Part shown: positions 22,206 to 56,105 of the stretch, piece by piece
Layout: every line of letters begins with the position of its first letter
How positions within the stretch are numbered: position 1 is the stretch's first letter
Virus record (IMG/VR): IMGVR_UViG_3300011271_000003
Location: 1 to 64,000 of that record
Origin: a virus
DNA: 64,000 nucleotides
Reading direction: 5' to 3' (one strand)
Notes under the pieces: model-generated
Database searches by the model: none
Seen by the model: the letters and a program-made list of their open reading frames with translations, nothing else
What the model was told of the DNA's origin: nothing
Translations under genes and position numbers: made by a program

Positions 22206-22522
22206 CGCTCCATCGCTGAGATGTCGATCAGAGCGGCCAGCATCTTGTCGACGCGGACTCTTTCCTGATCATAGTCTTTCCTAAGCGCCCGTGTATCTTC
22301 ATGACCTTCAAGTAGTGTCTGAAATGCTTCAGCTACGACATACGCGATCTCATAGCTGAAGACGTATGCGGCTGGTGACTCACAGCCAGGTGCGACTTTC
22401 TCCCACGAGCTTGCGCCGTCTTCGACTCGAAGACCTAGCCGAGAGCCGTCGTCCGAGCGGTGGATGACGTGGACGAAGACCTGGCCTCTCGCAGGGTCTT
22501 CCCTTACAAATGCCTTGATCAT
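22202..22522 (-). CDS. Hypothetical protein
   Basis: ATG overlapping the queE stop; tiled ORF. Confidence 0.55.
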   Translation of the reverse strand: MIKAFVREDPARGQVFVHVIHRSDDGSRLGLRVEDGASSWEKVAPGCESPAAYVFSYEIAYVVAEAFQTLLEGHEDTRALRKDYDQERVRVDKMLAALIDISAMER

Positions 22523-23270
22523 CGCTTCCTCTCGTTTCCCCAGAGTAGTACGTGCTGTCGAAGTGAGAGACCGTAACCTCGAGCGAGTGTCTCCTTTACG
22601 AGTATCTTGCCCCTGTAGATTTGTCCTTTTGAGGTAGTGCCCTCGGGCATGATCATAACGCAGCAAGGCTGGATGTTACACTCCTTTACGATCTGGTCGA
22701 TTTCGTCGAAGTCGCTGCTGCGAGATACAACGAACTTGAAGTAGGCGCCGCAGAGGTGCAGGTGTCGTAGCACTGCTGGTTTGTATCGCTTGCTACGTAC
22801 GTTACCACTGTTTTCCAGCTTAGGGGAGACGACGAACTGGCTCACGTGGAAACGGAATTCGGATAGCGGCATAATGGTGCCTGCAGTCTCGATATGCCTT
22901 GTACATCCGAGTTCCTGGAGGAGGCGCAGCAGGGGCAGAAGTGCAGACTGCTGCATCATGGGCTCGCCGCCGCTAATTATGATCTTCGTCGGCTTGTTGT
23001 CGATATCCCACAAATTGCGCAGGTGATCTACCACCTCGTCTGCCCCCATCTCGTGACACTCTTCGGCTTTGTCAGACAGAATTGGAATTAGGAGCTTGTC
23101 TGCCTTAGCTTGTGTGACAGCCCAGGTGTAGTGCGTGTCGCACCAGGTGCACTCTAGGTTGCATCCGAAAAGCCTGACGAAGAGGCAGTGCTGTCCCGTG
23201 TAAGGACCTTCGCCCTGCCTAATTGAATAGTCGGACCGAAGATTTCGTTCACCTTCAGGAGACTATTCAT
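22519..23270 (-). CDS. queE: 7-carboxy-7-deazaguanine synthase (radical SAM); frame interrupted by an 8-nt insert at 23215-23222
   Basis: MNSLLKVNEIFGPTIQ in one frame, then GEGPYTG..FVRLFGCNLECTWCDT..ISGGEPM..IETAG..VSPKL in another; AAGGAGG RBS. Confidence 0.88.
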
Positions 23271-23284
23271 AAGACATCACCTCC

Positions 23285-23794
23285 TTAAATGTGGCGCCAG
23301 GTTCGGCGCTTGACGATGCTTGATATGCATGTCTCGGTTACTTGGAACCTTCGGGCTAGGTTACTGATTGGCCACTTACCCTCGTGCAGTCTCCGAATCT
23401 CAAGAACACTTTCTTCGGTCAGCTTTGCTCGCGGATGCGTTTCTCCTAGCAGAAGTGTCCCGTCGCGCCGTCTATCTTCCCCGTTATTCTTGCTGTACGT
23501 TCCCCATACCAGATTTGGAAGAGAGTCGTCTAGAGGGCCTAGAGGTCCGTGGCAGGGAATTTGTCCCTTAGGCCGTGCGCACACGAATGCCTCTAGAACT
23601 AGAACGGCAACTTTACAGTTCTTGCTGCGTCCATTACGCGTAAGGGAAACTATATAATTGCTCCATGTCTGGTTCTTGTGAATCTTACACTTGGAGAGTA
23701 TCTTTCCGTCTAGGTTCCTCACATCACCTTGGTCGGAGACCTCGTAGAGGTCCTCGTAATCTACCACGGGCAGCCAGTGTGCGATGTTAGTCAT
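23285..23794 (-). mobile_element. Free-standing NUMOD4-HNH homing endonuclease
   Basis: W.PVVDYEDLYEVSDQGDVR (NUMOD4); LVLEAFV...CH...NLVWGT...N; C-terminal HTH. Confidence 0.85.
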
Positions 23795-23838
23795 GACGGC
23801 TGAATTGTCGGTCCGAATATCTCATTAACTTGCAGCAT
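23791..23838 (-). pseudogene. Duplicate queE N-terminus (MLQVNEIFGPTIQPS*) upstream of the HNH gene
   Basis: GGAGG RBS plus a 15-aa peptide matching the QueE start; its TGA overlaps the HNH ATG. Confidence 0.8.
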
Positions 23839-23840
23839 GT

Positions 23841-24296
23841 TCACCTCCCTGGCCGCGCTACATGGATCGGCTCGTCTAGCGACTTCACGGTTGCTGCGTT
23901 GACTGCCGTCTCATGCACGGTGACGCGTACTGGTAGCTCGAACTCGTTCTCAGCCCAGGCGCAGATCCACCTAGCGATATTTTCTGTCGTGGGGTCATCC
24001 GGTACGCAGGTCAGGCCTGGCAGGTGGTCGTCCTGCTCCTCGATCCCCATAAAGCAGGTCCAGGGGTCGTCCTTGTTCAGCAGGAGGTGGTGGTCGTAGG
24101 TTGAGTTAAGGTAGTGTCGGAACGCTGCCTTCGCAGCCCCGAACTCGATACCGCCCAGGATTCCTTCCTCGTCGATCTCCCCGTAGATTGTGAGCTCAAC
24201 CCACATAGAGTGCCCATGTATGTTCTTGCACTTACCAGCCGTCATAGTTAGTCTATGCGCGACTTCTATGTTGTGCCGAATTGTTATGCTAGGCAT
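23841..24296 (-). CDS. queD: 6-carboxy-5,6,7,8-tetrahydropterin synthase
   Basis: AHRL, CKNIHGHS, DH..LN, PTTENIA, VHET. Confidence 0.92.
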   Translation of the reverse strand: MPSITIRHNIEVAHRLTMTAGKCKNIHGHSMWVELTIYGEIDEEGILGGIEFGAAKAAFRHYLNSTYDHHLLLNKDDPWTCFMGIEEQDDHLPGLTCVPDDPTTENIARWICAWAENEFELPVRVTVHETAVNAATVKSLDEPIHVARPGR

Positions 24297-24929
24297 CCGT
24301 CCTCCCTTGGGTCTTGCGCTTGATCTCCTCTAGAATCGGGATTGGCCTTCGTTCGTGGCCGTGTGGGACAAAACCTGAATCGTGCAGGACATACTCTGGT
24401 GGTTTTCCTTCTAGGAGGTTGCAGAACTCGTCCGCCCACATCTGCGATGCCATCTGATGCTCTGCCGTGACGAGGTTCTTATCGCGCGTGAGAGCGACTG
24501 TTTGCAAGATTGCACCTGCACGCTTGAGAAGGTCTCGGGACCTGACTAGCGGAAAGAACGAGACCTTCTTGCCTCTTGCAACGTTGCGTATTGCTGGGAC
24601 TGAACAACAGATGGCTGCTATTGCAAGATCAGCCGCGTTGGCGTTGTCGAAGACAGTCTGTACTCGCCTGTAGTTCCAGTAGTTCTCGGTGTCCGCCATG
24701 TTGCCGGACACAATCATGACTCCCTGGTACCTCGCCATGTCGTAGGGATCTATGTCGTCTACAAGTAGAGTGATTTTGTTCGGCTGCATAGTGATCTCGT
24801 CCTGGATAATGTAGTCCGTAGAGACGAGGTCAAACGTGTGGCCACGATTCTGGATGACACCAAGGGCCGTCCAGAGTTCATGTCCACTAAATTATAGCGA
24901 CGGGCGCATATAACTAGAACGCGTGTCAC
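24289..24929 (-). CDS. DJ-1/PfpI (class I glutamine amidotransferase-like) protein; frame interrupted by a 5-nt insert at 24886-24890
   Basis: MTRVLVICARRYN, then GHELWTALG... in another frame; GVMIVSG, IAAICCS, DKNLVTA motifs. Confidence 0.75.
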
Positions 24930-24931
24930 TA

Positions 24932-25426
24932 CTAAACCACCGCCCTTCGGTTAATACCTTTTCTGCTCCGGAGCTCAGGTGGTGTCTCCCAAATGTTGAC
25001 GGCCTGAGTTACGGGGCGTGCATGAATTAGACAGAGCTTCTTGTGACACGAATGTGCCAGAACTAGTCCTTCAGGTACTGGTCCGTTATGTGCCACCCAC
25101 CAAAGTACATGAACAGGCTGGCTATTGTAGAGCCCATAGCCTTTCTTATGTACAGCGCCAGTCCACATTCTGCAGCCAGCCTTGTCTATGCGTGAATCAG
25201 CCATAAGGATGGCTATCATTGCTGGACCGTTTTCTAGTGCTAGGCGCGCTGTCTTTTGCTGCGAACTTCTTGCGTTTCCTGACATACAACTTCTACACCA
25301 GGAGTGTCGACCGTCTCTGCGGCCGCTTCCTCGTGGGAAGTCCTTGAACTTCTTCATCTCTCCGCATTTGGTGCATGCGGTTTGTATACCTGACGCAACA
25401 TCTTCTAGGTATACATCGCGAGTCAT
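24932..25426 (-). mobile_element. Free-standing HNH endonuclease with N-terminal zinc finger
   Basis: CTKC...DGRHSWCRSC; CRMWTG..GYG..VH...GPVPEGLVLAHSC..LC..H..VTQAVN. Confidence 0.8.
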
Positions 25427-25842
25427 TACTTCGTGACCTGGTTCTTTTCTACGCCGAAGCGATCTATTACTTCGGCGGCGTCGATTACAGGTGCATCAGT
25501 GATGTTCACTGGTGCCTTACCTACAATGTCGCCACTGTGTGGCACTTTGGCGATGTTGTTGTATAGCGGGTTCGGCAGCCCCGTCTCCTCGTCTACGTCC
25601 GTTCTGGCTGCGTATATCTCGCCCTGCCTGTTGAAGATCCGAATTGGTAGATTGTGACTTCTGATGTACGCTCCGAGGCAGGAATTAAGACTTTGCAGTC
25701 CCTGCTGGATACCTGTGCGGTCTAGCTGTGCGACTACGAGTCCTGTTTCCAGGAAGGTCTTCAGAAGAGGATAGCTTACACGGCCTCTGTGTGATTCGCG
25801 AAAGTTGGGAATCTCATCTGGGGCGACTGCCTTCCACTTCAT
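25426..25842 (-). CDS. Hypothetical protein, first gene after promoter
   Basis: ATG after GAGG, directly downstream of a predicted promoter. Confidence 0.6.
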   Translation of the reverse strand: MKWKAVAPDEIPNFRESHRGRVSYPLLKTFLETGLVVAQLDRTGIQQGLQSLNSCLGAYIRSHNLPIRIFNRQGEIYAARTDVDEETGLPNPLYNNIAKVPHSGDIVGKAPVNITDAPVIDAAEVIDRFGVEKNQVTK

Positions 25843-25882
25843 GGCGAGTCCTCTCTCTCTTGTGGTTTGTTGTTCACCTCTT

Positions 25883-25911
25883 ATTGTATAATTGGTGAAG
25901 ATGAAATTCAA
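25883..25911 (-). promoter_or_regulatory. Sigma70/HrdB-type promoter TTGAAT-N17-TACAAT
   Basis: Near-consensus hexamers in an AT-rich intergenic gap upstream of the modification cluster. Confidence 0.7.
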
Positions 25912-26185
25912 GTGTTTAAACACGGCAAAGTTTTAACCACTTAAAGATTCCTGTCTAGGGATGATGGCTGGCTACTGCCGCTCTACGCTGCCTGTGCTCC
26001 AGATGTGCTGCTCCATGTACAGGTCGAATCGATCAGCTAGGACGTAAAACTCGTTTCTGGTAAGTACGATACTTTGACAGCGAAGCTTCTCGTCAGGTTC
26101 GTCCTCGCGGACGACGCTAGCTTCTACTTCGATCCAGTCTGTACCTGCTTCGTCGAGAGTGCACGCTTCCAACGTCACTCTCGAC

Positions 26186-27817
26186 TTAGGCCTCACGCTG
26201 AGGTCCCTCAGCTACTGCTTCCTTCCAGAACTCCGTGTCTGCATACTGTGTCTTGTCCCAGTTTTTAGGCGCCTTGGTTACGCTAGCGATCGCCTCTAGT
26301 CTCTCGACACAGGTTCCGCACCTGCCACAGTGAATTTCGTTGCCTCTGTAACAACTCCAGGTCAGCTCGAGAGGTACGCCCCGGCGGTACGCCTCGGCAG
26401 CTATGTCGTCTTTGGAGAGGTGGATGAAGGGGACGAGGATTTCGAAGTTAGGCCGAATGAATCCCTCGTTGCCCCACTGCAGCGTCTCTAGCACTGAGTG
26501 CATGAAGATAGGTCTGCAGTCTGGATACTGATAGTGGTCGCCGGCGTGCATACCGGCTGCGACATAACGGTACTTCGCGTTGACTGCAACAGCTGCAGCG
26601 ATCGAGAACATCATCATGTTCCGGTTAGGTACTACGGTAATGGCCATGTTGTCGGCACTGTTATGCGACAAGTAGCCGTCTGCGATGAGAGTACTTGTGC
26701 TGGTCCCTAGTGCTACGACAGCGCGGTTGCCTACAGGTTCGACGGATACCACTCTGACTGGACGAGTGCGCGAGCCTGCTATCCATCGTCCCTCCCAGAG
26801 ACGACGGGCGCTCTGCCTGAAACGTGTTGGCTGGAACATTCCAACGAACCGCAGAGCCGTCTGCTCACCTTCTAGGCGGAATCGGAGACACTCTGTTTTT
26901 GTCTCCTTTGTGTTCTTGAAGCCCTCGCTTGGTTGGAATCCGAACTTCTTGAGTGCAACCTTGACGCGCTCAAGAGTCTCTCCAGGATTCTGCGAGAATT
27001 GGAAGTTCGTGTCATGCAGGGTGGCTTCGCCATCCATGAAGCCTGCAAGGTATCCGGCGTCACTATCAGTTTGTACTTCCCAAGGGTTCAGGTAGAGCGA
27101 AAGCGTGTCACCGGGCATGAGTCCTAGAGAGTGTCCACTAGGACCTGAGGTAACCGTTGGGTCGTACGTTTTGCGCCACCTACGCCCTGTAGCCAGACCA
27201 CCGCCGCTACGTCCTCTTCTAGCTACCCAAAGGTGGTCGTAGCTAGCTACGACCTCTTGTCCCGTCTCTAGTACTATGCGAGCACAGGGCAGAACCTTAA
27301 CGCTGGTTGCCGTTACTGTCGATTCCTGCAGCTTCGAAGCTGGTTTGCCCTGTTGTCCTGAGCGTAGCTCTTCATCGAAGCCTACGACCTTGTCTCCTAC
27401 TGCTAGGTCTTCGATATTGCGCCACACAAGGTCAGTGCATAGTACCTTCGTGCCTGGTGCTAGACAGTAGTGACCTTCCGGAACTTCAATTCGGGAATGC
27501 ACCGTAGCAGTGTTGCGGTCCAACACCGTAGGCTGCGGAGGCGAGGTGAGAGCGGAGTTGCTGATCAGATCGGTAATACTGGACAGGTCGATCCGCGACC
27601 ACCGGAGCCCCAAGCGTTCCGCGGTCCACAGGGCGTATTGGAGCTCCTTCAGGTGCCTCTGGCCGTAGTCGAACGAAAGGAGGTGCGGGCGCTTTCCGAG
27701 ATGTACGAGGTGGTAGGCCGTGGTAATGCTGTCCAGTCCGCCTGAGACAATGGCGACACCATCGCTCTTGTCGTTCTCCCAATCAGGCTCGTACCTAGAA
27801 ACAAGCTCTGTTCCCAT
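26186..27817 (-). CDS. queC: 7-cyano-7-deazaguanine synthase, intein-containing
   Basis: SGGLDS, SFDYGQRH..E, VPNRN, YPDCRP, TWSCY...HCGRCGTC.ER; AAAGGAG RBS. Confidence 0.95.
   Translation of the reverse strand: MGTELVSRYEPDWENDKSDGVAIVSGGLDSITTAYHLVHLGKRPHLLSFDYGQRHLKELQYALWTAERLGLRWSRIDLSSITDLISNSALTSPPQPTVLDRNTATVHSRIEVPEGHYCLAPGTKVLCTDLVWRNIEDLAVGDKVVGFDEELRSGQQGKPASKLQESTVTATSVKVLPCARIVLETGQEVVASYDHLWVARRGRSGGGLATGRRWRKTYDPTVTSGPSGHSLGLMPGDTLSLYLNPWEVQTDSDAGYLAGFMDGEATLHDTNFQFSQNPGETLERVKVALKKFGFQPSEGFKNTKETKTECLRFRLEGEQTALRFVGMFQPTRFRQSARRLWEGRWIAGSRTRPVRVVSVEPVGNRAVVALGTSTSTLIADGYLSHNSADNMAITVVPNRNMMMFSIAAAVAVNAKYRYVAAGMHAGDHYQYPDCRPIFMHSVLETLQWGNEGFIRPNFEILVPFIHLSKDDIAAEAYRRGVPLELTWSCYRGNEIHCGRCGTCVERLEAIASVTKAPKNWDKTQYADTEFWKEAVAEGPQREA
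26660..27466 (-). mobile_element. Intein with LAGLIDADG endonuclease in QueC
   Basis: CLAPGT...YLAGFMDGEA...YLSHN followed by S. Confidence 0.92.
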
Positions 27818-28184
27818 TCTTTCTCCTTTGTAGTACCAGTTGTATGGTGACTCGTCTAGGCCTGCCTCAGGGCTCTCTAGCCGCCCAAGTGGCATGAGCG
27901 GTGTCGGCTTTACGTAGGTTCCTGGAATCGATTGGGGTCTCATGGTAGGTCTCCTCCTCCGTGATAGGCATCCGGCCCTTCCCACCAGGGCCTAGGACCG
28001 TCGTTGCCATAGCGACGGTACATGTAGTCACACATCCAGGCAATGCTGTCTACGACAGGCACTCCTGGTGCTGGGCCGCTAGGGTCCACGTGCGTGCCGT
28101 AATAGCGGCTGAAGCTGCGCTTGACCGCCAGAATATCTGCTAGAGGATCTGCGTCAGGCCTGTCCCATGGGAGATGCTCAGGCA

Positions 28185-30362
28185 TTACTGCTTCGCTACC
28201 TTTTCTGGCTGTGATAGTAGTGATTGGTAGATTTGCTGTCTACCGTGCTGTGTTACGTGTACTTGTCCGCGCTCCTCTAGTGTTCTGCCTATGAGAGTCA
28301 TTTCATGTGAGTTTAGATGGTACCGCTGCATGATGGCGGAGCGTGCCATGTGATCCGCTTTGTGAATGGCGCCAGCGATCAATTCGATCTTGTGCTCCAT
28401 CGGACCCTTACCGATGTTGACGACTATGTCTTGCGCGTGCCTCTTCCAGGTCTCACCGTAGTAGGTCGCCCTTATAATGTCCTCTTCTGTTACAACGAGC
28501 TGTCCTTCATTCCTAGTTCGGGCAGCTGCCATCAGCACCGCTGCCTTCAACATACTGAAGCCAAGCCTGGCGTACAGAGGAGTTAGGATGTCTCGGAAGT
28601 CTCCGGCGTCCATTCCCGTCTGCATCATTGTCTGATCGACTCGGTTGAACCTAGCCCAGGCTGCGTCTGTCAAAGATGCCTCGACCACTTTGTCCTGTGT
28701 GCCGACAATCTTGTCGCCCACTAGAACAGGTACTTGAGCTTTATAGCAGGCGTATATGTCACTCAGTTCCTCCTTGATCGTGTCCCGTGCGCCCCAGTTG
28801 CGTTCTGTAGGCGGCCCTAGCGGCTTCACCTTGCTGGGATCCGTTGTGGCTGTTACAAAGATAAATCTCGGAAGGAACCCGGATGATACATGCTCGAAGG
28901 TAACAAGGCTCTGCATGCGCGACTTGATACCGCCTGCGAAGATTATAAGTCGCGGATCCTTAACTCGCACCTCTTCCTTCCTAAGTCTCCGAATAACTGT
29001 CCTGCTATCGTAGAGCTGTGTGAAGAACTCTGGCATGCCTGCCATGTAGTCCTTCTTTGTCATCTGTTCCATCAGGCCAGTAAACTCGTCTCGAAAGAAG
29101 ATAGACACTTTCCCAGGCCTAGTTGACAGAGCAGTTGTAAGCCCCTCTATGCTTCCGTCTGTAGCCATGAGCAACGTATCGTCAACTTCCGTTATTAGGT
29201 CTATCACCAGGTTCATCGCGGTCGTCTTCCGGCTAATCGTAGTATCAGCCAGAATCATCAACCAAAGGTTCGGAATTAGTACGCCGAAGGAGGTAGGCAA
29301 GACGATTGATCCTGACAACAGGCTCGACAGCGCAATGAAGGCTCCGGCCTGATGGTACTGGATTGCTGCATCCCCTAGGGTCTTTGCCCAGGCTATATAT
29401 CGTTCTACGAATCCGGGACTCCCCTCTATGTCCTTTCTTTCCTGATCGGTAATCAGCTCTGGTTCTCCCTGAGAGGGCAGCTGACCTTGCTTCAGGTTCT
29501 GGGCGTGCATTGCGATAGCTCGGCAGACATCGCGCCAGAGTAGATCTGGTCTCTCCTGCCACTTGTTGCATTTGGCATCCCTCGCTACCTGGAAGATGTC
29601 GTTAGGTTCCATGCCCGCTTCCGCGCAAAGCATTTCCAACCTGAAGAGTCGCGTGCTTCTGTCACCTCCCTCGTCCGTCTGGTCGTGGAACAGCGTTTGT
29701 GCTGATCCGGAAATTTTAAAGCGGTACCGCTCGACGATCTTGATCCCATCTTCAATTATCAGGTCGGAAGGGAACGGAATTGCCAAATGCTCATAGCCCT
29801 CGGCCTGTGGATATTGTGCGAAGTCGGAGGGCCGGTATCGGACATCGTTCTCTTCTACGACTTTTACTTCAGGGGCAGATGGACCGTCACCATACTTGAA
29901 GTTCCGTGTCCCGGGGATGCGTAGCAGTTGAGTGAGGTCCCAGCCGGAGCGATCGGCCCCTTCTTCGGAATGGTAGTAAGCCACGCGTCGGGCGATACTT
30001 TCACCCTCTGTAGGGTCCCTAGCTTCGTCGAACGACCAAAAAGCCTGAAAGCGGTTAGGGCTCGTCTCGAGCGCGATGGTCGGTCGAACCAGTAGTACTC
30101 GAGGGTGACATGTATCCAAGTCTGCCCAGACACAGGTAGTTGCCACAACGTTAGTCTTAGTCCGCTGTGGTCCTGACAGCAGTTGAGGACAGAAGTAGAC
30201 GTTTCCGGTGTACTTGCTTCGCTCCACGAATTCATGCATGTCCTTCAGTTGGTCAGGGTATCTATAAAAGGTCTCCTTGAACACATCCTTCTTCTTGATC
30301 GCAATGCAGACGAATCCACGGTTTGTTCCGAAAATAACGTTGAAGAAGGTGGCAGCTCGCAT
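28185..30362 (-). CDS. DNA primase (RepB-like primase domain) fused to DUF3987-like helicase domain
   Basis: VWADLD, ETSPNRFQAFW, LLRIPGTRNFKY; C-terminal SRKTT and FRDEF motifs. Confidence 0.8.
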   Translation of the reverse strand: MRAATFFNVIFGTNRGFVCIAIKKKDVFKETFYRYPDQLKDMHEFVERSKYTGNVYFCPQLLSGPQRTKTNVVATTCVWADLDTCHPRVLLVRPTIALETSPNRFQAFWSFDEARDPTEGESIARRVAYYHSEEGADRSGWDLTQLLRIPGTRNFKYGDGPSAPEVKVVEENDVRYRPSDFAQYPQAEGYEHLAIPFPSDLIIEDGIKIVERYRFKISGSAQTLFHDQTDEGGDRSTRLFRLEMLCAEAGMEPNDIFQVARDAKCNKWQERPDLLWRDVCRAIAMHAQNLKQGQLPSQGEPELITDQERKDIEGSPGFVERYIAWAKTLGDAAIQYHQAGAFIALSSLLSGSIVLPTSFGVLIPNLWLMILADTTISRKTTAMNLVIDLITEVDDTLLMATDGSIEGLTTALSTRPGKVSIFFRDEFTGLMEQMTKKDYMAGMPEFFTQLYDSRTVIRRLRKEEVRVKDPRLIIFAGGIKSRMQSLVTFEHVSSGFLPRFIFVTATTDPSKVKPLGPPTERNWGARDTIKEELSDIYACYKAQVPVLVGDKIVGTQDKVVEASLTDAAWARFNRVDQTMMQTGMDAGDFRDILTPLYARLGFSMLKAAVLMAAARTRNEGQLVVTEEDIIRATYYGETWKRHAQDIVVNIGKGPMEHKIELIAGAIHKADHMARSAIMQRYHLNSHEMTLIGRTLEERGQVHVTQHGRQQIYQSLLSQPEKVAKQ

Positions 30363-30605
30363 AAGCCCTGCTCCTCTAGAAGATGGGCCGCCGTTCCACC
30401 CTGTGCCCGCCGTTCCGGTGCACTTGAGCTATGTACTCCCTTCTGTACCTGCGAGTAGTAATGGGATCGGTTACTGTTACCTCGGTCTCGGTGAATCTGT
30501 GTGTGAATGAACATCCGTTGATGCCGCACCGGATCTTAACGAATCCTTGGTTAGATTCTGAGGTTGTTGTTGTGCGTCCGGGCACTCTTTCCTCCGTTAT
30601 GTGCA

Positions 30606-31193
30606 TCAGCGTGTCCGGTTATACTTGTTAAAGCTGATGAAGTCTTCCCAGTCGGCTGGCGTGGTTGCTGGCATGATGTGTGTAGACGGGTATCTCAGTC
30701 CTGCCTTGTTGTAGCCCCAGGCTGCTAGTGAGCTGCACACTACATGACCTGGTACTTGATTGCCCCATCTCTCCCGGTTAGGAAAGATATCTTCGATATG
30801 GAGAGCTGCTGCAGCGTCACTTGCAATGGCATCCCAGTCGTAGCGGGTGCCGACTGCTGCCGTCATTGCGGCACAGATAGTAGCTCGCTGTGCGTCAGTC
30901 TTTGGCTGACGGATGTTGTTGACTGTCCAGCGGCTGTCCAGGTACCTGCGCATGTCTATCTCACCAGTGCCGCCTGGTCGTCCTTCGATGCCCCAGAATA
31001 TTTCCTTGGTTGTACCTGGATCGGTGTAGTGATGTGCGATAATGACGTGGTTGTCTAGGCTAGGTTCGCCCTGTAGAATGGCGCCTATTCTAATTAGCTT
31101 GGATGCCCAGCCATTTGTCTGTACGACAAGTACGTCGCCTGGCCCTACTGCAGCTGTTGGTCGCCTATCGTACTGTCCTGGAACTCCTGACAT
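30606..31193 (-). CDS. Permuted papain-like NlpC/P60 (YiiX/YebB-like) protein
   Basis: PGDVLV, NHV, G.RYDW and VCSSLAAWGY. Confidence 0.75.
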   Translation of the reverse strand: MSGVPGQYDRRPTAAVGPGDVLVVQTNGWASKLIRIGAILQGEPSLDNHVIIAHHYTDPGTTKEIFWGIEGRPGGTGEIDMRRYLDSRWTVNNIRQPKTDAQRATICAAMTAAVGTRYDWDAIASDAAAALHIEDIFPNRERWGNQVPGHVVCSSLAAWGYNKAGLRYPSTHIMPATTPADWEDFISFNKYNRTR

Positions 31194-31222
31194 GTAACTT
31201 CCTTTCGCTGATGCCTCATAGA

Positions 31223-31316
31223 CCCGGGCGGGCATATGGCTATCCGCCTAGGGGTGCGCTGCTTGAACCGGGTACCTCTACTTCAGGATCCGTAAGCTGC
31301 AGCGTGCCCGCCCGGG
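31223..31316. ncRNA. Candidate structured RNA element, ~95 nt
   Basis: Perfect 12-bp terminal stem CCCGGGCGGGCA/TGCCCGCCCGGG with internal CGCTGC/GCAGCG helix. Confidence 0.4.
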
Positions 31317-31327
31317 AGTATCAGGTG

Positions 31328-31870
31328 TCAGGGAAGAACTGACGCAGCTGCCGCAGGCTTAGCGTCGACTCCGCTCGCCGTGGAGGTTCCTCCCTCATAC
31401 TTCATGAAGCTCATGAGCTCGATGCGCGGTTCGACGACTCCTTCGGAGTTCTTGTTCTTCTTGTTAAGCCGCCGAATGCCCCAGATGTCCTTGCCGATGT
31501 AGAACTCACGGGCGTCTGGGATAACGAGTGCGCCAGCCTGGACAGGGTAGTCCAGGGCCTTCAGGATCTGGCTGATTGTGTACAGCGCCGGCTCGAAGCA
31601 CATCGCGTTCGTCCAGTCCTTGTACGTTACGTACTTGCCGTCCTGGATGATGAACTCGAAGTTGATAAACGGCTTGCCTCGGTTCTCAGGCTTGGCGTTT
31701 TCCGAGGTGAACTTGATCTCCATGTCGGTGATCTTGAGGTGGAACTTACCCGCCGGAAGGTCTTCACGCGCCTTGGAGGCCGCTTCCTCCGCCGACATGT
31801 TCACTCTGATACCTTCGCCAGTGCCCATGGAGGAGGTACCTTGGAGACCAACTTCGTCGGGGGTGGTCAT
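31328..31870 (-). CDS. Putative single-stranded DNA-binding protein (DUF669-like OB fold)
   Basis: LPAGKFHLKITD...GKPFINFEFII.DG; near the AAA ATPase and nuclease genes; strong GC3 bias. Confidence 0.6.
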   Translation of the reverse strand: MTTPDEVGLQGTSSMGTGEGIRVNMSAEEAASKAREDLPAGKFHLKITDMEIKFTSENAKPENRGKPFINFEFIIQDGKYVTYKDWTNAMCFEPALYTISQILKALDYPVQAGALVIPDAREFYIGKDIWGIRRLNKKNKNSEGVVEPRIELMSFMKYEGGTSTASGVDAKPAAAASVLP

Positions 31871-32262
31871 GATAGTGTCCCTTCTGTGTTCGCTTTCACG
31901 GTTCGCTTTCTAGGTGTACCGAAGTGCTCGTTGTAGTATCTCTCGACGTTCTGTCCTTGTGTCTTCGCCTCTAGGCAGTCTGGGGCGACACAGAGTTTAA
32001 TGTCGCACAGCTGATCGATGACGCAGCCCTTTGGAATCGGCCCCTTGAAGAGTATGTACGAGTACCTATGGGCCAGAATTGTTTTGCCACGGATTCTGGT
32101 GACGCCGTAACCGCTATAACCGTACTTTGGATCCTTCGATCCCCGACTTGTATGCCCTTTGTGCTCAGCGCCCTGCCAGATCCAGTGCTTACCGACTTTT
32201 ATAACCTGCTTATGCTCCAGGTTGTATTTACGTTGCTCGTCAGTAAGTCTCGGAGGCGCCAC
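31867..32262 (-). mobile_element. Free-standing HNH endonuclease
   Basis: WIWQG..GYG..AHRYSY..KGPIPKG..ID.LC..CV.P..LE..T..N. Confidence 0.8.
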
Positions 32263-32516
32263 TGTTGTCTACCTCTCGAAGAGAAATACGCGCTGCCAGC
32301 TAGCGCGACTTGGTCCGGGCGCTACAGGCCAAATTTCTTTTATGGTCCAGCCATCGTCGAGAATATCACTGAGACCTATGATCTTTCCGAGGTCGCGTGG
32401 CGTACCCATGTCGGCGACTTGCGCGCCGGTAGTTTCGCTCACCTCTACATCGTCATGTACGTTAAGGGTCCGTACACTGTACTCAGACATATCGTTCGCC
32501 TTTCTGGTTCGCGTTC

Positions 32517-34184
32517 TCAGCTAGTTTCTGGCTTCTTGCTGATGCCTTGCGTGATTCCCTTGTAGATGTCTGCCATTGTCGGGTCGATCATAACATCCGG
32601 TAGATTCCCAGATCTGTCCTTTCCGATATATCCCTCGCGTGCGCCTGTAAGTAGCTTGCGGACAGGCTTGCCGTCTTCTGTCTTCATGTACAGGTAGGTG
32701 ACGACATCGAAGAACCCCGCCACCTCGAACGAGAGCTTCCCTGACAACTGAGGCATGTGCAGGATCGAGCCGTTCAGGGCGTCTTTCTCTTGCCGTTCGT
32801 GAGCTGTCATGATCACGTTGACGGGGAGGTCACGGTACTTGCGAACCCACTTGCGAATCTGCTCTATATTCTTACCCCACCTCCTGATATCCGGAATGTC
32901 TGGGTCCCAGTTCTTCTCTGGTTCTGCCATAAGCAGCTCGGCCATAAGCTGGGACATGTTCATTTTCTGGCACTCGGTAAGAGTATCCAGAATGACAGTG
33001 CGTGGCGCGTACTCTCCAGGTTGTACGCCATTGTAGCAGTTGTGGACGAAGATTCCCGCTCCTATGGCGAAGTTTCTTGTCGAAGTTTGAATGTCGAATG
33101 TGGGCTCTTCTCCTGCTGGCGTTATGGAGACTACTCTGTGGTTTTGCTTATTTTCCTGTAGGATCCTGTAGACGCGCGATACTGATAGATTCAGGTGCTC
33201 TGCTACTTGCATCCGTGTCCAGTCAGGGTGTTCTTGTATAGCAGTCGCAACTTGGTCACGACTGGACCCCTGACCTGGCCTGCCCCTCTTCTCATTGTAG
33301 TACTCCTGTAGTCCCGCTGCACTAGCTTGCTCTGACTCAGAAGTGTGCCACTTGAAGTCTGTCAGCTTAGAGTGATCTCCCCGTGAAAGGCACTCTAGGT
33401 TGTCAGGGTAGTTGTTGAATGTGTTGTTGGGATCAGCATCGTTGCGGTGGTGTACGACCATACCTTCAATATCCATGCCGAAGAACCTCGCTGCGACTCT
33501 GTGCATATACTCCAATGGAGTCGTCCATTTGTTGTCCGGCTTGACTACGTGGTACTGCTTTTTTGACTTACCTACTGTAACGGTGCTCACGGTAGCAGGC
33601 ATCAGCGATGTGCCTCGGATGAGCTTATCTACGCGTGCATAGGTTCCATCGCGCAGCATAAGAAGGTGGTCTCCAGTTGCCCTAAATCGAGAAAGATTCC
33701 CAACTCTGTCGTCGAGTACGACTTCGTATACAGGCTTAACGCCCTGTACGAAGACTTCCTCGACTAGGGCCGGCGTCCAGCCGTCTTCGTCCGTCCACCC
33801 CCAGACCCAGTCTCCCTTTTGTAGGGCGGCTATTAGCCTGTTCCTGTTGAGCGTAATGACTTCGGTGTCACCTGTCAGGCATTGTCGAGCTATCTGATCG
33901 TACACTGCCTCTAGCTGGGCCCAGGAGAGGCTTCCTTCCTCTGGAACCTTTTTGATCTCTGGAGCTGCATGCCGAAGCGTCATGTCCCCGCCCTCAATGT
34001 TGAGGTACAGGACCGGACGCATTGCGGGCACGTGATCCGCCGTAGCAGCCAGGAACGTCTTGCCGACGCCAGGCTGGCCATATATAAGTAGGTTGATATT
34101 GGCACGTGTGTCTCTGACCGGGGCAAAAGGAATGCCCGCGAACGTCTTTGGACTTACGACAACGTTTGCCGCCGGAGTGGTCAC
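32517..34184 (-). CDS. AAA_24/Sak4-like ATPase, intein-containing
   Basis: Walker A GQPGVGKT, Walker B VILDTLT, MTAHE, FFDVV.Y, GKDR. Confidence 0.8.
   Translation of the reverse strand: MTTPAANVVVSPKTFAGIPFAPVRDTRANINLLIYGQPGVGKTFLAATADHVPAMRPVLYLNIEGGDMTLRHAAPEIKKVPEEGSLSWAQLEAVYDQIARQCLTGDTEVITLNRNRLIAALQKGDWVWGWTDEDGWTPALVEEVFVQGVKPVYEVVLDDRVGNLSRFRATGDHLLMLRDGTYARVDKLIRGTSLMPATVSTVTVGKSKKQYHVVKPDNKWTTPLEYMHRVAARFFGMDIEGMVVHHRNDADPNNTFNNYPDNLECLSRGDHSKLTDFKWHTSESEQASAAGLQEYYNEKRGRPGQGSSRDQVATAIQEHPDWTRMQVAEHLNLSVSRVYRILQENKQNHRVVSITPAGEEPTFDIQTSTRNFAIGAGIFVHNCYNGVQPGEYAPRTVILDTLTECQKMNMSQLMAELLMAEPEKNWDPDIPDIRRWGKNIEQIRKWVRKYRDLPVNVIMTAHERQEKDALNGSILHMPQLSGKLSFEVAGFFDVVTYLYMKTEDGKPVRKLLTGAREGYIGKDRSGNLPDVMIDPTMADIYKGITQGISKKPETS
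33039..33881 (-). mobile_element. Intein carrying an HNH endonuclease and an HTH
   Basis: CLTGDT...ATGDH...YMHRV..VVHHRN..NN.PDNLE..H...IFVHN followed by C. Confidence 0.88.
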
Positions 34185-34775
34185 TGGCGCTCCTCTTTGC
34201 ATGGGCTGCCGTTGAGCATACATTCTGCCGCTACAAGTACTGCTTCAGCATAGCCTTCGTCGTGTGACTCCCAGCCATGCTCGCCTTCGACGTGTTCCCA
34301 GAGCTTCTCAGGATCAATTCCGACCGCAAGACCTATACGGTCGCACTCAGTTGGCCTGGGATCGAGGTCTATCCAGGGTTCGCCTACACTCACTGGCGCT
34401 CCAATACGGAGTGGGACGGAGGTACTTGGACGGCTGGTTCCGTAACTGTCCAGGGGCCAGCCTGTTCGCAACCTTTGGTTCTGTCGCAGAAGAACGTTTG
34501 GCGAACATCTATCTGAAGGTGTTTAAGTGCCTCTGCTGCATGTATTGCCAGTGTGTCACCTGTAGGAATGACGGTAAGTGAGTTCTGATGTACTGCATGA
34601 GCGTGTACTGTTACGTCTCCTACGAATCCAGGTTTGGAGCACACACCACACGAGCTACCAAAGACGAACTTCTTCATTCTGACTACCTTTCAGCCTGTTG
34701 TTCTCTTTATCCGCCAGCCGTACCAGGTAGCGATGTCAACATAAGCCTTGGCGAGGCTCCCAGCGGAGAAAGACG

Positions 34776-35267
34776 TTATCTGATGGCACTATCCACCTCT
34801 AGGTTCAGTCTTGCAAACTCTCCGAAAAGTTCCTTCGCTTTCTCATCGTATGCCCTTGCTGCCTCAACCTCATCGTCGAAGTAGCCCAGGTGATAGTGTT
34901 CGCCTGTACAGTTTACGTAAGCAACCCACTTACCTCTTCGCTTGTACCAGGAGACACCTTTGAATCGACTTGACCCTCTACGCGACGTAGAGTTAGCGAG
35001 GTTCTGTGCGTGGGTTGCTTCTCGTAGGTTGGTCCTAACATTGTTTAGTCCGTTTCCGTCTTTGTGGTCAATCTGAACTCTACCCATGATAAGGTTATGC
35101 ATGTAAATATAAGTAGTCTGATAGTCCTTCGTCTTGCTAGCTCTGGCGTACACAAGCCAGGGGTTACAGGTAGGCGTAAAAGGGTACCACTTGCGCCTGC
35201 TAACCAGGTCGTAGTCTTCGTCGTCAATAAAGGCCACGGCGCTACCTACCGGTATCTCTCTCATCAC
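34776..35267 (-). mobile_element. HNH-AP2 homing endonuclease
   Basis: IDHKDGNGLNN..NLR; SRFKGVSW...HLGYF..E.EAARAYD. Confidence 0.9.
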
Positions 35268-37426
35268 TCGCCCCCTTTAGACTCTGTGCTGGCGCCCAAC
35301 TTTTGTCGTACGTAGTACGGGAGTCTTCGCTCATACAGAGTGTTAAGTGTGTACTGATAGTCTTGTCCGGAGTTTTGGGAAATGCAGGGTGTTTGGAAAG
35401 CGCAGAAGTTGCAACCGAATTTTCCAGGGGAAGGGTAAATACGGAGGTTCGGGTCGATCATGTCTCGGACTTCGGCTAGTAGGTTCTTTTCGACCTGATC
35501 CAGTTCGTAGTCGGACTTGTACACAATGAACCTACGGTAGTAATCGGTTCCGGCTGTTTTAAGGTGCTCGAGGAACTCGTCGTACGCACCTTCTTGCCAC
35601 GCCTCTGTGTCGAACTCTTTAATGTGTGCGAGGTAGACTTCGTAGCTCGTGGCCTGATTTACGTTAACGCTAAACAACCTGCCAAGACGTCGCTGCTTGT
35701 TCTCCTTGGGAGGTTCCGGAAATGCTTTACGTTGTTCGTGATAGATGAAACCACGAACGTTCAGATTCAGCTTCTTTCTTAGCGCCATACAATAGCTGTT
35801 TCCTGTTACTACTATCTGGCCATTCTGACGCATTACCCAGGTGCCGAGGCGAGTAGTTGGGCACCAAACTGGTCGAGGCTCTGGCAGATTAGTTGTTACT
35901 ATTGTTCTAGTCCACTTGCGTGGCTCACTTACAACAGTTTGTTGGCACCTCTTGGCGCCATGCTGAGTAGTTGGATACTTGCCTGAGAGGAAAAAAGCTA
36001 GGCAAAATAGGTCGTTCTTCAGTCCTGGGTTCTGGTGGAACTTATTAGAGTGCCCTTCTGCGAGGATGATAGTCTCACAGAATACTTGACGTGCCTTAGG
36101 CGCTAGCCCGAGGACGAACGATTCCCACCCGTCTAGTTCGTAATTGAGCTTGGCCTTGTCTAGTAGCCGCCGGAAGAAAGGAGCACGCAAGTGCCACTTC
36201 AACCCCTGGACGCCCTTTCCTTGGGGTCCGAACCCTCCGCTGAACTTCGAGATGCTAGAGTAGCAGTCGCTAAACCTATCGAGGAGGCTCTGAATCTCTT
36301 TAACGTACTTGCTCTGAGCAATTGTTACCTGAACGCCTCTGGGTCCTCTGCTGATGTTTCCGTCTGACAGCACCCAGGCAATAACAGCTGCCTCGTCAGG
36401 AGTAATATCGTTAGTAGGGTTGTCCAGCTCGGCTGCTAGTACGACGTAGGCTTGTTGTTGTCCGTTCTTGAGCGCCTGAAGCTGATACGCTCCATGGTCT
36501 GGCGTTGTTGTGTGAGTTCGCTTCGCCCATCTATGTTCGGGAGTTGTGATAAAGTCGAAGGACTTTGCTCTAGAACGAACAACGCTCGTTGGTCCATACA
36601 CGTTGACGTCCTCTAGGAGAGTCCACTCTAGAGCGTCTTCTTTTCCGTTATAGCCGAGGACCTCTTCGCCTACGACAAGCTGATTGTGGTGCTTCCAGCC
36701 ACTACGAGTAAGAATTTCTGAGTCAAGTGGTACACAGGCGATTTGATCATCGAGCTCCAGGAAGACTTCACTGGTAGAAAGTTGCGCTGCAGTCTTCCAG
36801 TCCCAGGTGGGCTTTAAAATCCAGTAGTACCCCTCCATGTCGTGAACGACCAAGTCTACGCGCCCGGAGAGAACTACAGGATTTCCAAACCACCTCCCTC
36901 CGCCGTTCTTGGCGAAGGCTTTTCGACAGGTGACACACTTGCAAAAGACTTGCTCGCCGTTCTCGTCTGTCAAAGGTACGTCGAAGCTGGCTTCAACATA
37001 CACGGGAACGTACTTGGCCTGGATGTCTGCAAGCTGATTATTAACGTAGTACCAAATCATCCCCCGGCCTAGACGGACTCGCTCGGAATAGTCTTCTTCG
37101 ACCTCACCTCCGAGCGCTTGCTCTCCGTTAGCGCGTAGGTACTCTCGCATCTGTTGTTCGCAGATGTCGAAGAAGGCCTTCTCGGCTAGGGCCCCCAAAA
37201 CCTTAGGGTGGTATTTCCAGGTTGCCGGGTTATGCAGCACCTCCATCGCCTTATGGTACGCTATTCCGAACTCAAGCGGTTTGGCTGTCACTGTGGGATA
37301 GTAATTCTGTCTGAACAACCAGTTCCACCTACGTCGACATCCTCTGAACGATCTGCGCTCGCTGGTGTGTATCTCGTGCATGAGCCCACGAGCAATCATA
37401 TCCTCAGCGTAGACAGCTAGGGCCAC
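35264..37426 (-). CDS. Cas4-like PD-(D/E)XK exonuclease, intein-containing, with a 12-nt in-frame insert at 36806-36817
   Basis: SERRSFRGCRRRW, FGIAYHKAME, GRVDLV, DWKT, C-terminal CNFCAFQTPC. Confidence 0.85.
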   Translation of the reverse strand: MALAVYAEDMIARGLMHEIHTSERRSFRGCRRRWNWLFRQNYYPTVTAKPLEFGIAYHKAMEVLHNPATWKYHPKVLGALAEKAFFDICEQQMREYLRANGEQALGGEVEEDYSERVRLGRGMIWYYVNNQLADIQAKYVPVYVEASFDVPLTDENGEQVFCKCVTCRKAFAKNGGGRWFGNPVVLSGRVDLVVHDMEGYYWILKPTWDWKTAAQLSTSEVFLELDDQIACVPLDSEILTRSGWKHHNQLVVGEEVLGYNGKEDALEWTLLEDVNVYGPTSVVRSRAKSFDFITTPEHRWAKRTHTTTPDHGAYQLQALKNGQQQAYVVLAAELDNPTNDITPDEAAVIAWVLSDGNISRGPRGVQVTIAQSKYVKEIQSLLDRFSDCYSSISKFSGGFGPQGKGVQGLKWHLRAPFFRRLLDKAKLNYELDGWESFVLGLAPKARQVFCETIILAEGHSNKFHQNPGLKNDLFCLAFFLSGKYPTTQHGAKRCQQTVVSEPRKWTRTIVTTNLPEPRPVWCPTTRLGTWVMRQNGQIVVTGNSYCMALRKKLNLNVRGFIYHEQRKAFPEPPKENKQRRLGRLFSVNVNQATSYEVYLAHIKEFDTEAWQEGAYDEFLEHLKTAGTDYYRRFIVYKSDYELDQVEKNLLAEVRDMIDPNLRIYPSPGKFGCNFCAFQTPCISQNSGQDYQYTLNTLYERRLPYYVRQKLGASTESKGGE
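35798..36736 (-). mobile_element. Intein (LAGLIDADG-type, ends in GN) in the Cas4-like nuclease
   Basis: CVPLDS...TPEHRW...WVLSDG...ILAEG...VWCPTT..VVTGN followed by S. Confidence 0.88.
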
Positions 37427-37621: not shown

Positions 37622-38047
37622 TTAGCACCTACAGGCAACATAGCCACATCTGTTACAGACTACACGGCCACGTCGCGCAGCGTGTCGTACTCTGCTACAC
37701 ACCTTACATTCGTGCGAGACCGTGTGAACGCCAAATAGCGCTTTGAGGTGCCCGTTACTACAGTACGGGCTGTATGCTTCTGCTATGTTCTCTTTGTGTG
37801 TAATAGGCCGCACATGCTCCCAGAACGCACGCTTGTCTTTCTTTCGTATGTGTCCGAGCTCGAAACCTTCAGGTACTTCTCCTACGAAGTGGTTGTATGC
37901 GACTAGGTGCGCAGGATGGCTTATCCAAGCTAGACAGAATTGTCCGTATCCCCAGGATCCGTACGTGCCACCACGCCAGTTCCAGCAGCCCGTTTCTAGA
38001 TCTACCACGCAAAAGCTGTAGAAGCGCCTGAGGTCAGCTTCTGACAT
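37622..38047 (-). mobile_element. HNH-like endonuclease with Cys-rich C-terminus
   Basis: GCWNW..GYG..AH...GEVPEGFELGH...H...ITHKEN; ends CNRCGYVACRC. Confidence 0.75.
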
Positions 38048-38399
38048 AAGCAACCTAGTCAATTGGCCCACTCCTTGTGTTGACCATAAGTCCACAGGCT
38101 AGGAGCGCCTCAGTTAGTTCCAACTTCAGGCCTGCTATATCTCCCGGCATAGTGTCTTCCGCCTTGATACCATATACTCGGAGCGCTGCTCTGGCAAGTC
38201 GGAGTTGTGCCAGTCTGATTTCGCCATAACTAAAGGGTGCGCCTGGGGCCTCCGGGTCGAGCTGGTTTGAATGGTATGCGGACCTAGGTCCGTCCACAAG
38301 CGTCGCCCCTGTGTCTCGTCCTTGTTGGAAGTGGCCGGCACGTCTGACTGGAATAACCATACTGCTTCGGTGTCGCATACATTCTCCGTTCAAGGTCCG

Positions 38400-56086: not shown

Positions 56087-56105
56087 AAGTCTCCTCGCAG
56101 GTCCC

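Follow-up and report, generated by a model that had tools for sequence, protein, structure and literature searches.

Short TTA- or stop-headed gaps behind homing-endonuclease genes in an uncultured soil phage and its relatives, and their probable bypassing by ribosomes

Introduction

When a few bases that its relatives lack interrupt a phage gene inside a conserved motif, is the gene lost, or do ribosomes skip the extra bases? Here, we address this question for queE, a DJ-1/PfpI gene and a PD-(D/E)XK (Cas4-like) nuclease gene in 64,000 nucleotides of viral DNA (positions 1 to 64,000 of IMG/VR record IMGVR_UViG_3300011271_000003), called the window below. The window is part of a 98.8-kb virus contig (G000; 55% GC, actinophage-like genes) of an uncultured soil phage. 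An earlier note, made from the sequence letters, had proposed that ribosomes bypass short TTA-initiated inserts in these three genes, that a bldA-type tRNA of a Streptomyces host switches the products on and off, and that the inserts are coupled to HNH endonuclease genes. The host assignment is not borne out, the cultured relatives being only distant actinophages (about 27-35% identity). The account that we consider reasonably likely is translational bypassing over short distances, as proposed for phiHau3, combined with a homing-nuclease cassette like that of T4 mobA/gene 60.

Results

The motifs of all three inserts occur once each, on the minus strand, where the earlier note had placed them; as it claimed, each is headed by TTA and ends in a codon that matches or nearly matches the codon preceding the insert. 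The queE locus is arranged as follows:

23285..23794, minus strand: HNH/NUMOD4 homing-endonuclease-like gene, between queD and queE (Pfam NUMOD4; PHROG HNH endonuclease families, best E 1e-27)
23223..23270, minus strand: queE 5' segment, ATG at 23270 plus 15 codons, the last being the take-off codon CAA (Gln16); encodes the conserved N-terminus through ...TIQ, as in about 60 homologs
23215..23222, minus strand: 8-nt gap, TTA (23222-23220) at its head and the proposed landing codon CAG at its end; missing from all of the about 60 homologous loci
22519..23214, minus strand: queE main segment, with the GEG motif, the CxxxCxxC radical-SAM part and the stop codon (Pfam Radical_SAM, Fer4_12)

No start codon was found across the first 71 codons of the main-segment frame, and the zero frame past the gap runs through 22 junk codons before it ends. 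The xQGEG motif is unbroken in about 60 QueE loci compared, and in relatives without the gap, queD or queC directly adjoins queE.

The DJ-1/PfpI gene has the same arrangement:

24932..25426, minus strand: HNH homing-endonuclease-like gene directly upstream of DJ-1/PfpI (Pfam HNH_3; PHROG HNH families)
24891..24929, minus strand: DJ-1/PfpI 5' segment, GTG at 24929 plus 12 codons, the last being the take-off codon AAT (Asn13); agrees with the first 13 codons of the gene in relatives
24886..24890, minus strand: 5-nt gap, TTA (24890-24888) overlapping the proposed landing codon AGT; missing from five relatives
24289..24885, minus strand: DJ-1/PfpI main segment (Pfam DJ-1_PfpI)

Across the first 34 codons of this main-segment frame, no start codon was found. 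In five of the six other DJ-1 copies, RRYN or RRFN is followed directly by G/P-H; the sixth, L170 (from relative G005), is the only other copy with a gap, of 4 nt and at the same place, where AAT is followed by TAG and AGT stands at the gap end. The upstream HNH gene shares 58% identity across its core with the ORF in the same place in L170, and the shared gap site persists in two lineages diverged to 65% protein identity. Selection was tested for DJ-1 alone among the interrupted genes. The main segment in the window gives dN of 0.27-0.29 against relatives with dS saturated, and the interrupted copies together give dN of 0.16-0.29, again with dS saturated and with all conserved motifs kept. 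The relaxed selection downstream of the insert that the earlier note held would speak against its reading is thus not seen in DJ-1; purifying selection acts on the copies that carry a gap, which are therefore not dead genes.

The third insert, in the nuclease gene, keeps the frame:

37622..38095, minus strand: HNH homing-endonuclease-like gene upstream of the nuclease gene (Pfam HNH_3, weak; PHROG HNH endonuclease, E 1e-16)
35264..37426, minus strand: PD-(D/E)XK (Cas4-like) nuclease gene with an intein at 36736-35798 (Pfam PDDEXK_1; intein borders by comparison with intein-free relatives)
36806..36817, minus strand: 12-nt in-frame insert, TTA-headed, coding for LKPT, one residue ahead of the catalytic D-x-K; residues in these columns in 0 of 119 homologs
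34776..35267, minus strand: HNH-AP2 homing-endonuclease-like gene directly downstream of the nuclease gene (Pfam AP2, HNH_3)

The TTA of this insert is the only internal one in the 720-codon gene. A homolog (P0025) carries an intein-like insert 3 codons downstream of the LKPT-insert site, and relative L172 has neither the upstream HNH gene nor the 12-nt insert. Comparison with homologs confirms the gap sizes that the earlier note had read from the sequence: the extra bases or residues are absent from about 60 QueE, five of six other DJ-1 and 119 of 119 nuclease homologs, and removal of the 8, 5 and 12 nt restores the family consensus exactly (xQGEG, RRYN-GHELW and YWI-WDWK, respectively).

The scarcity of TTA outside the inserts, which the earlier note had judged by eye in a few genes, holds genome-wide. 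In ORFs of at least 250 aa, TTA accounts for 3 of 12,009 codons in this phage's contig and is by far the rarest sense codon, every other one occurring at least 48 times; the trinucleotide itself occurs 1,441 times on both strands, so the rarity is specific to the coding frame. Long genes of two relatives are similar (G001, 0 of 11,944 codons; G007, 1 of 8,341), and the lone G007 occurrence and one of the three in G000 fall within out-of-frame overlaps. Internal in-frame TTA is found only at the heads of the queE, DJ-1/PfpI and nuclease inserts. The other TTAs of the cleaned gene set lie upstream of the probable real start, fall where genes overlap or occupy one of the final two codons of a gene. 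Because two real genes end in this last way, UUA may be readable at some level.

Four further gaps of like layout were found in relatives (seven in all with those of the window). Along with the L170 gap, these include a 5-nt gap in G001 queE (ACT, then zero-frame TGA, with ACC at the end) and two gaps in the Walker A motif of SNF2, of 5 nt in G001 (ATG, TTA, ATC at the end) and 7 nt in G007 (CTT, TTA, CTA at the end). The first zero-frame codon is TTA or a stop (TGA, TAG) in all seven, and TTA in at least four. Take-off and landing codons agree at 9 of 15 positions (P = 0.004, five pairs tested), with imperfect matches at DJ-1 (AAT to AGT), G001 SNF2 (ATG to ATC) and the nuclease (ATT to ACC); part of this resemblance may be microhomology dating from the origin of the insert. 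No stimulatory RNA structure was consistent across the gaps (z from -2.1 to +0.8), and inspection of the sequences revealed no slippery heptamer at any gap site.

The coupling to HNH genes proposed in the earlier note is strongly supported. HNH-type genes stand directly upstream of all three interrupted genes of the window, and across this genome and its relatives every frame-breaking gap (6/6) lies directly behind an HNH- or LAGLIDADG-like ORF, 13-41 codons into the gene. Gene copies without such an upstream ORF have a gap in 0 of 34 cases (Fisher 1.7e-6), the gap-free queE copies being scored as endonuclease-free by homology and Pfam, with three upstream ORFs that matched no family. Some homing-endonuclease genes in this genome have no gap in the next gene.

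Discussion

Ribosomes probably hop over these gaps. In this phage the gaps, of 5, 8 and 12 nt, each interrupt a conserved motif, and the gene concerned directly follows a free-standing homing-endonuclease gene. In the proposed scheme, a ribosome would there meet a codon that it cannot promptly read, UUA here or, in relatives, also a stop codon; the peptidyl-tRNA would release the take-off codon, slide 4-12 nt and re-pair with a like codon at the gap end. Standard decoding would restart after landing, and the product would therefore be exactly the family consensus. At the DNA level, the gaps probably spoil target sites of nucleases: each would disrupt the sequence cut by the neighbouring endonuclease or, in the nuclease gene, by the intein-borne one. 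The carrier genome would therefore be protected, and we propose that gap and endonuclease gene are inherited jointly. Hopping, how efficiently it occurs and the shielding of the DNA from cutting are all inferred.

Frameshifting in place of hopping appears unlikely. A stalled ribosome would shift by +1 or +2 nt and the gap-end triplet would be decoded by an incoming tRNA, adding one or two residues (Q-RQ-GEG in QueE, N-S-G in DJ-1). The frames permit this, since skipping TT brings AGG CAG (queE) or AGT (DJ-1) into frame, and the imperfect landing matches fit it; the authors of the phiHau3 study were initially unable to exclude +1 shifts (PMC10732093). However, the extra residues would sit in motifs of invariant length (about 60 QueE and 5 DJ-1 homologs), no site offers a slippery heptamer, and the hop junction of phiHau3 was detected by mass spectrometry. 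At DJ-1, the 5-nt and 4-nt gaps would need different shifts (+2 in the window, +1 in L170) and a single landing codon, AGT, fits both, which favours the hop. It is very unlikely that the interrupted genes are simply dead, through collateral endonuclease damage or decay: frame-breaking indels are typical of pseudogenes and the phage is uncultured, but the downstream frames are intact, the DJ-1 copies are under purifying selection and keep one gap site across two diverged lineages, and the deazaguanine gene set of which queE is part is complete in other respects. Nor would random indels be expected to begin with TTA or a stop in seven of seven cases or to finish in take-off-like codons. Assembly or sequencing artefacts are scarcely credible, as indels of 5-12 nt are atypical of errors, TTA heads are not expected from them, and comparable gaps recur in independent contigs from other samples, in one case at the DJ-1 site found here.

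The gaps might instead serve mainly as a regulatory sensor, with products made only while a UUA-reading (bldA-type) tRNA is scarce, so that DNA modification and recombination are tied to host growth phase. This is the published phiHau3 model (PMC10732093), TTA does head most of the gaps, and its avoidance suggests a host that reads UUA poorly. We nevertheless find it quite improbable here, and the on/off switch of the earlier note with it: in relatives, the same DJ-1 site and a neighbouring queE site carry TGA or TAG where this phage has TTA, so that sensing of a tRNA is not required of the stalling codon. Moreover, G005, with TAG in its DJ-1 gap, uses TTA at about 4 per 1,000 codons, and the sensor model does not predict the strict link to endonuclease genes. 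Of the three bypasses claimed in the earlier note, those at the frame-breaking gaps of queE and DJ-1 are probable; the case is weaker for the nuclease, whose insert leaves the frame unchanged and so does not require one. If UUA were read slowly, or by a near-cognate tRNA, the protein would still be complete but would carry four additional residues that the enzyme tolerates or that inactivate it. Such plain translation is possible though somewhat doubtful: ATT to ACC is a weak re-pairing and the gene tolerates an intein too, but no homolog among 119 has a residue at this position next to the catalytic motif, and the insert is headed by the sole internal TTA of a long gene in a TTA-avoiding genome.

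Comparison with known systems

To our knowledge, short hops in E. coli are low-level events of artificial or incidental contexts and not conserved features of natural genes. What they share with our proposal is that slow decoding in the A site, at hungry codons or 'shifty stops', lets peptidyl-tRNA re-pair at least 5-6 nt further along (Weiss et al., 1987; Gallant and Lindsley; as cited in PMC10732093).

The T4 cassette, like those here, has a free-standing HNH-type endonuclease gene directly upstream and an insert a few dozen codons into the next gene, which is skipped by ribosomes (here predicted) and inherited together with the nuclease. The T4 gap is of 50 nt against 4-12 nt here, its stalling codon is UAG where here it is usually UUA, its take-off stem-loop and nascent-peptide signal have no evident counterpart here, and it is one homologous element whereas here many different genes and endonuclease families are involved. 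In the byps of mitochondria, take-off and landing codons match, and the inserts often open with an unassigned or stop codon. These programmed bypassing elements of Magnusiomyces capitatus (Lang et al., 2014, as cited in PMC10732093) are likewise short skipped inserts that interrupt multiple genes per genome (many in byps; skipping here predicted), but they are 27-55 nt long, mitochondrial and without a link to adjacent endonuclease genes. For T4 mobA/gene 60, the literature describes the homing endonuclease with its 50-nt translational bypass and the view that the insert protects against the nuclease (Bonocora et al., 2011, as cited in PMC5009743; Manning and Atkins, 2022, preprint).

The kinship to phiHau3 suggested in the earlier note is upheld. 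UUA-led coding gaps are described in the large terminase genes of Streptomyces phage phiHau3 (two, 10 nt) and two Streptomyces prophages (7 nt) (Antonov et al., 2023, RNA Biol, PMC10732093), which credits the first proposal to a 2013 study (Smith et al., its ref. 45) and reports the junction peptide by mass spectrometry in E. coli with UAA substituted for UUA. The same layout is read in the phiHau3 record (NC_018836; GGC then TTA...GGT, and TCT then TTA...TCC): the last consensus codon, UUA, a few bases and a codon synonymous with the take-off codon, after which decoding restarts. In both systems, the gaps lie in conserved motifs and UUA is very rare genome-wide, and the genes here are actinophage-like. 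Our gaps differ in size (4-8 nt and 12 nt, one in frame), in that stop codons can replace UUA, and in genomes of 50-55% GC, unlike phiHau3. Every frame-breaking gap here is directly behind a homing-endonuclease gene, whereas the nearest annotated HNH gene of phiHau3 is about 1.4 kb upstream of its terminase, and the word 'homing' is absent from the phiHau3 paper (PMC10732093). Bypassing of this type has been published for terminase genes only; the candidates here include no terminase and are instead queE, DJ-1/PfpI and a PD-(D/E)XK nuclease, joined in relatives by an SNF2 helicase.

Genome context

Contig G000 is 98,804 bp long with a G+C content of 55%, the window being its first 64 kb, and from ~11 kb onward in the window genes lie on the minus strand. 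The closest cultured phages found by protein searches are actinophages at only 27-35% identity, and megablast against cultured phages found no near relative. The closest relative is virus contig G001 (QueE identity 61%), one ORF of which matches both window positions 1-329 and G000 positions 98099-98803 with overlapping query ranges, so that G000 is probably circularly permuted or terminally redundant. No tRNA genes were detected by ARAGORN in G000 or G001 and no match was found in an Rfam gathering search of the window; the phage therefore appears to bring no recognisable UUA-reading tRNA. Gene sets were produced by simple codon-score calling, and the close relatives compared are a small sample.

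The region with the gaps holds a 7-deazaguanine set (folE, queE, queD, a DJ-1/PfpI-family gene and queC) as well as a primase/helicase, an AAA_24 ATPase and a PD-(D/E)XK nuclease; it is also rich in HNH-type endonuclease genes and has several inteins. The DJ-1/PfpI-family gene is found within the folE-queE-queD-queC cluster (window 21426-27985, minus strand) in 6 of 7 genomes, with queC not adjoining in contig G004, and its product may be an amidotransferase-like partner in making the 7-deazaguanine DNA base. At least four apparent inteins were seen in the window.

Apparent inteins in the window
26186-27985, minus strand, intein in QueC (599 aa, vs ~240-315 aa in relatives)
32517-34223, minus strand, intein in the AAA_24 ATPase (Intein_splicing and HNH_3 matches)
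35798-36736, minus strand, intein in the PD-(D/E)XK nuclease
~15486-16226, minus strand, likely intein inside the 1,086-aa ORF 14802-18062 (match to the intein portion of SNF2 in G001)

Gaps within conserved motifs

Three inserts led by TTA, as the earlier note had reported, are present in queE, the DJ-1/PfpI-family gene and the nuclease gene, each motif being found once, on the minus strand of the window. Reading of queE begins at an ATG (23270) and continues for 16 codons, ending ...TIQ, before a TTA (23222-23220), while another frame, free of ATG, GTG and TTG over 71 codons, holds GEG and the cysteines of the radical-SAM part. Removal of 8 nt (23222-23215) from this frame-breaking gap joins CAA to GGC, and the resulting xQGEG is uninterrupted in all ~60 QueE loci of the virus and metagenome collections, the metagenome scan having been made for queE. 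The DJ-1/PfpI-family gene opens with a GTG (24929); its first 13 codons, up to ...RRYN, precede a TTA (24890-24888), and its remainder lies in another frame, free of start codons for 34 codons. This gap too breaks the frame; without its 5 nt (24890-24886) AAT joins GGA, and RRYN or RRFN is followed directly by G/P-H in 5 of the 6 other DJ-1 copies. Compared with relatives, interrupted DJ-1 copies keep every conserved block and have a dN of 0.16-0.29 with dS saturated, which rules out long-dead genes.

The nuclease gene has 12 extra bases in frame (36817-36806, encoding LKPT), with TTA first, 204 codons into the gene and one residue before the catalytic D-x-K. These columns are empty in 119 of 119 nuclease homologs, all of which read G-x-Y-W-x-x-D-W-K unbroken. 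Across the gaps, removal restores the family consensus with zero residues extra or missing.

Relatives have four more gaps of this layout.

Gaps in related virus contigs
queE of G001, 5 nt, two codons upstream of the position in the window: ACT, TGA (zero frame), end ACC before ATC
SNF2 helicase Walker A motif of G001, 5 nt: ATG, TTA, end ATC before GGA (unbroken DEM/DDL-GLGKT in three homologs)
SNF2 Walker A motif of G007 (locus L190), 7 nt, two codons past the G001 site: CTT, TTA, end CTA before GGA
DJ-1 of G005 (locus L170), 4 nt, at the position of the gap in the window: AAT, TAG, end AGT before GGC

All seven gaps (7/7) open in the zero frame with TTA or a stop codon. Twenty-nine other loci have a gap-free Walker A motif, and one (L211) has an intein at the motif. 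A screen for frames lacking start codons, together with cross-genome tblastn, raised several other candidates: the N-terminus of QueC in each of G001, G003 and G004, and that of the protein in G003 homologous to ORF 14802-18062. These were rejected on inspection, being fused upstream ORFs or alternative starts.

The claim that in-frame TTA is rare in this genome held: TTA makes up 3 of 12,009 codons in G000 ORFs of at least 250 aa, where no other sense codon falls below 48 occurrences (CTA 196, ATA 109), and the trinucleotide is frequent outside the coding frame (1,441 on both strands). This near-absence of the codon is indirect evidence of a host in which UUA decoding is limiting. In a cleaned gene set, remaining TTAs fall before likely true starts, in overlaps between neighbouring genes, or within the final two codons of a gene; among credible genes, internal TTAs are thus confined to the three insert sites. 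A TTA at codon 3 of ORF 19181-20326 was discarded as an in-frame codon because it falls in an out-of-frame overlap, as does one in G007. TTA is the last sense codon of the SNF2 helicase gene (42361-42363, minus strand) and the second-to-last sense codon of another credible gene (codon at 12893-12895, minus strand); were UUA hard to read, ribosomes on those two genes would stall just ahead of the stop codon. G001 (49.5% G+C) has TTA at 0 of 11,944 codons and G007 (53% G+C) at 1 of 8,341, out of frame. G005, one of the two relatives whose stalling codon is a stop, uses TTA at ~4 per 1,000 codons.

Association with homing endonucleases

All six frame-breaking gaps occur 13-41 codons into the gene, with a homing-endonuclease-like ORF immediately upstream.

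Endonuclease-like ORFs upstream of gapped genes
23285-23794 of the window, upstream of queE, NUMOD4/HNH
24932-25426 of the window, upstream of DJ-1/PfpI, HNH_3
G001, upstream of queE, LAGLIDADG-like motif
G001 3870-4388, HNH-AP2 type (PHROG HNH family, E 5e-46)
G005 1025-1450 (L170 coordinates), HNH
L190 1180-1494, weak HNH match

An association of inserts with HNH genes had been suggested from the window, and it extends to relatives: a gap is present in 6 of 6 copies with an endonuclease-like ORF vs 0 of 34 copies without one (26 queE loci, 5 DJ-1 and 3 SNF2, all gap-free; Fisher 1.7e-6), where absence of an upstream endonuclease was called by homology and Pfam and three of the upstream ORFs so called match no family. 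The queD-queE spacer holds two different endonuclease types, each with a different gap in one queE motif. The endonucleases upstream of DJ-1 in the window and in L170 are homologs with 58% identity across the core, and the same two conserved genes flank both. DJ-1 of G005 shares 79% identity with the gap-free copy of G004 vs 65% with that of the window, so the cassette is patchily distributed, as expected of a mobile element. Free-standing HNH- or AP2-type genes also occur at 31867-32262, 34776-35267 and 55547-56254 (all minus strand), and in each case the next downstream gene has no TTA gap or frame break; a micro-gap is therefore not the sole way for a carrier to live with a nuclease.

Upstream of the nuclease gene with the 12-nt insert is an HNH gene (37622-38095), and the intein of this nuclease lies 23 codons beyond the insert. 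Its close homologs P0006, P0019 and P0025 are encoded on contigs of 84-105 kb. In P0025, D-W-K is followed at once by an intein-like insert that matches LAGLIDADG weakly and lies three codons from the insert in the window. The nuclease of relative L172 is without flanking endonuclease gene, intein or insert. Because inteins or intein-like inserts lie nearby in the window and in P0025, and L172 is free of all three features, the 12 nt may ruin the target site of a nuclease encoded in an intein or in a neighbouring gene. Motifs with micro-gaps coincide with hot spots of homing elements, namely the SNF2 Walker A motif, with the L211 intein (~700-1690) ending ...THN before T, and D-W-K, after which the P0025 insert lies.

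Proposed decoding of the gaps

When five pairs were tested, the take-off codon and the final codon of the gap agreed at 9 of 15 positions (P = 0.004). CAA/CAG, ACT/ACC and CTT/CTA are synonymous, and AAT/AGT and ATT/ACC are only near matches. A frameshift could also bring ribosomes into the downstream frame, but a +1 or +2 shift would insert one or two residues in motifs of invariant length, and the DJ-1 site needs +2 in the window and +1 in G005, whereas landing on AGT accounts for both. No slippery heptamer (X XXY YYZ) or homopolymer run was found at any gap site, and the overlapping triplets mismatch the take-off codons. With a 5' stem-loop and a Shine-Dalgarno-like stimulator as the features expected of phiHau3-type gaps, folding of six sites gave z values of -2.1 to +0.8 with no structure in common. 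Transcriptional slippage and splicing were rejected, the former because no long homopolymer run is present and the latter because 5-12 nt falls short of any known intron. The regulatory part of the earlier note, which had the inserts act as a switch dependent on the bldA tRNA, is not supported, nor is Streptomyces as the host; stop codons replace TTA in relatives.

Given a first codon that the host would fail to read and a final codon resembling the take-off codon, we propose an exact ribosome hop. Bypassing of the 12-nt nuclease insert is less certain, because this insert keeps the frame and ACC matches ATT poorly. In the proposed mechanism, a homing-endonuclease gene and a gap of 4-12 nt would together form a general mobile two-part element of soil actinophages, in which the gap would sit in the conserved motif targeted by the nuclease, open with a codon unreadable by the host (UUA or stop) and close with a copy of the take-off codon; the DNA target would be destroyed and the protein left unaltered. 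We are evenly divided on whether soil actinophages carry such an element of mobile endonuclease and hopped 4-12 nt gap, whose in-frame gaps, such as that of 12 nt in the nuclease gene, gene callers would miss and which may also act in defence against intein-borne nucleases. The gaps in queE and DJ-1/PfpI suggest that the 7-deazaguanine DNA-modification pathway of the phage relies on two recoding events.

If the hop is true, gene callers truncate or split such genes wrongly, or silently add residues at in-frame gaps; it would follow that homing nucleases select for recoding; and work on how ribosomes let go of a codon and find one again would gain short, defined cassettes. The layout is simple and testable: a codon that would not be read, 4-12 nt of gap, and landing on a codon that resembles the take-off codon.

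Comparison with known systems

To our knowledge, natural bypassing is limited to very few cases, namely T4 gene 60 and its homologs, the yeast mitochondrial byps and three terminase genes of Streptomyces phages or prophages. The window and related contigs add seven gaps in four non-terminase gene families. Like those of the Streptomyces phage phiHau3, the three window sites have an in-frame UUA straight after the last consensus codon and, within a conserved motif, a short gap that homologs lack. The phiHau3 gaps, read from NC_018836, are GGC, TTA...GGT before AAG and TCT, TTA...TCC before ACG; the full-length phiHau3 protein was seen in Streptomyces, and a junction peptide in E. coli after a change of UUA to UAA (PMC10732093). 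Published cases of UUA-led bypassing are confined to three terminase genes, the word "homing" is absent from that paper (PMC10732093), and in a 2016 review phiHau3 is set against T4 as the case linked to a nuclease. UUA-led gaps are now tied to homing endonucleases, a link that the literature searched gave only for the unrelated T4 element. As in T4 mobA/gene 60, a free-standing homing-endonuclease gene lies directly upstream of the interrupted gene, and insert and nuclease co-occur; the T4 gap, however, spans 50 nt and is accompanied by a hairpin at take-off and a signal in the nascent peptide, whereas the gaps here are 4-12 nt with no shared hairpin. While not members of that element family, the gaps here work like the T4 cassette.
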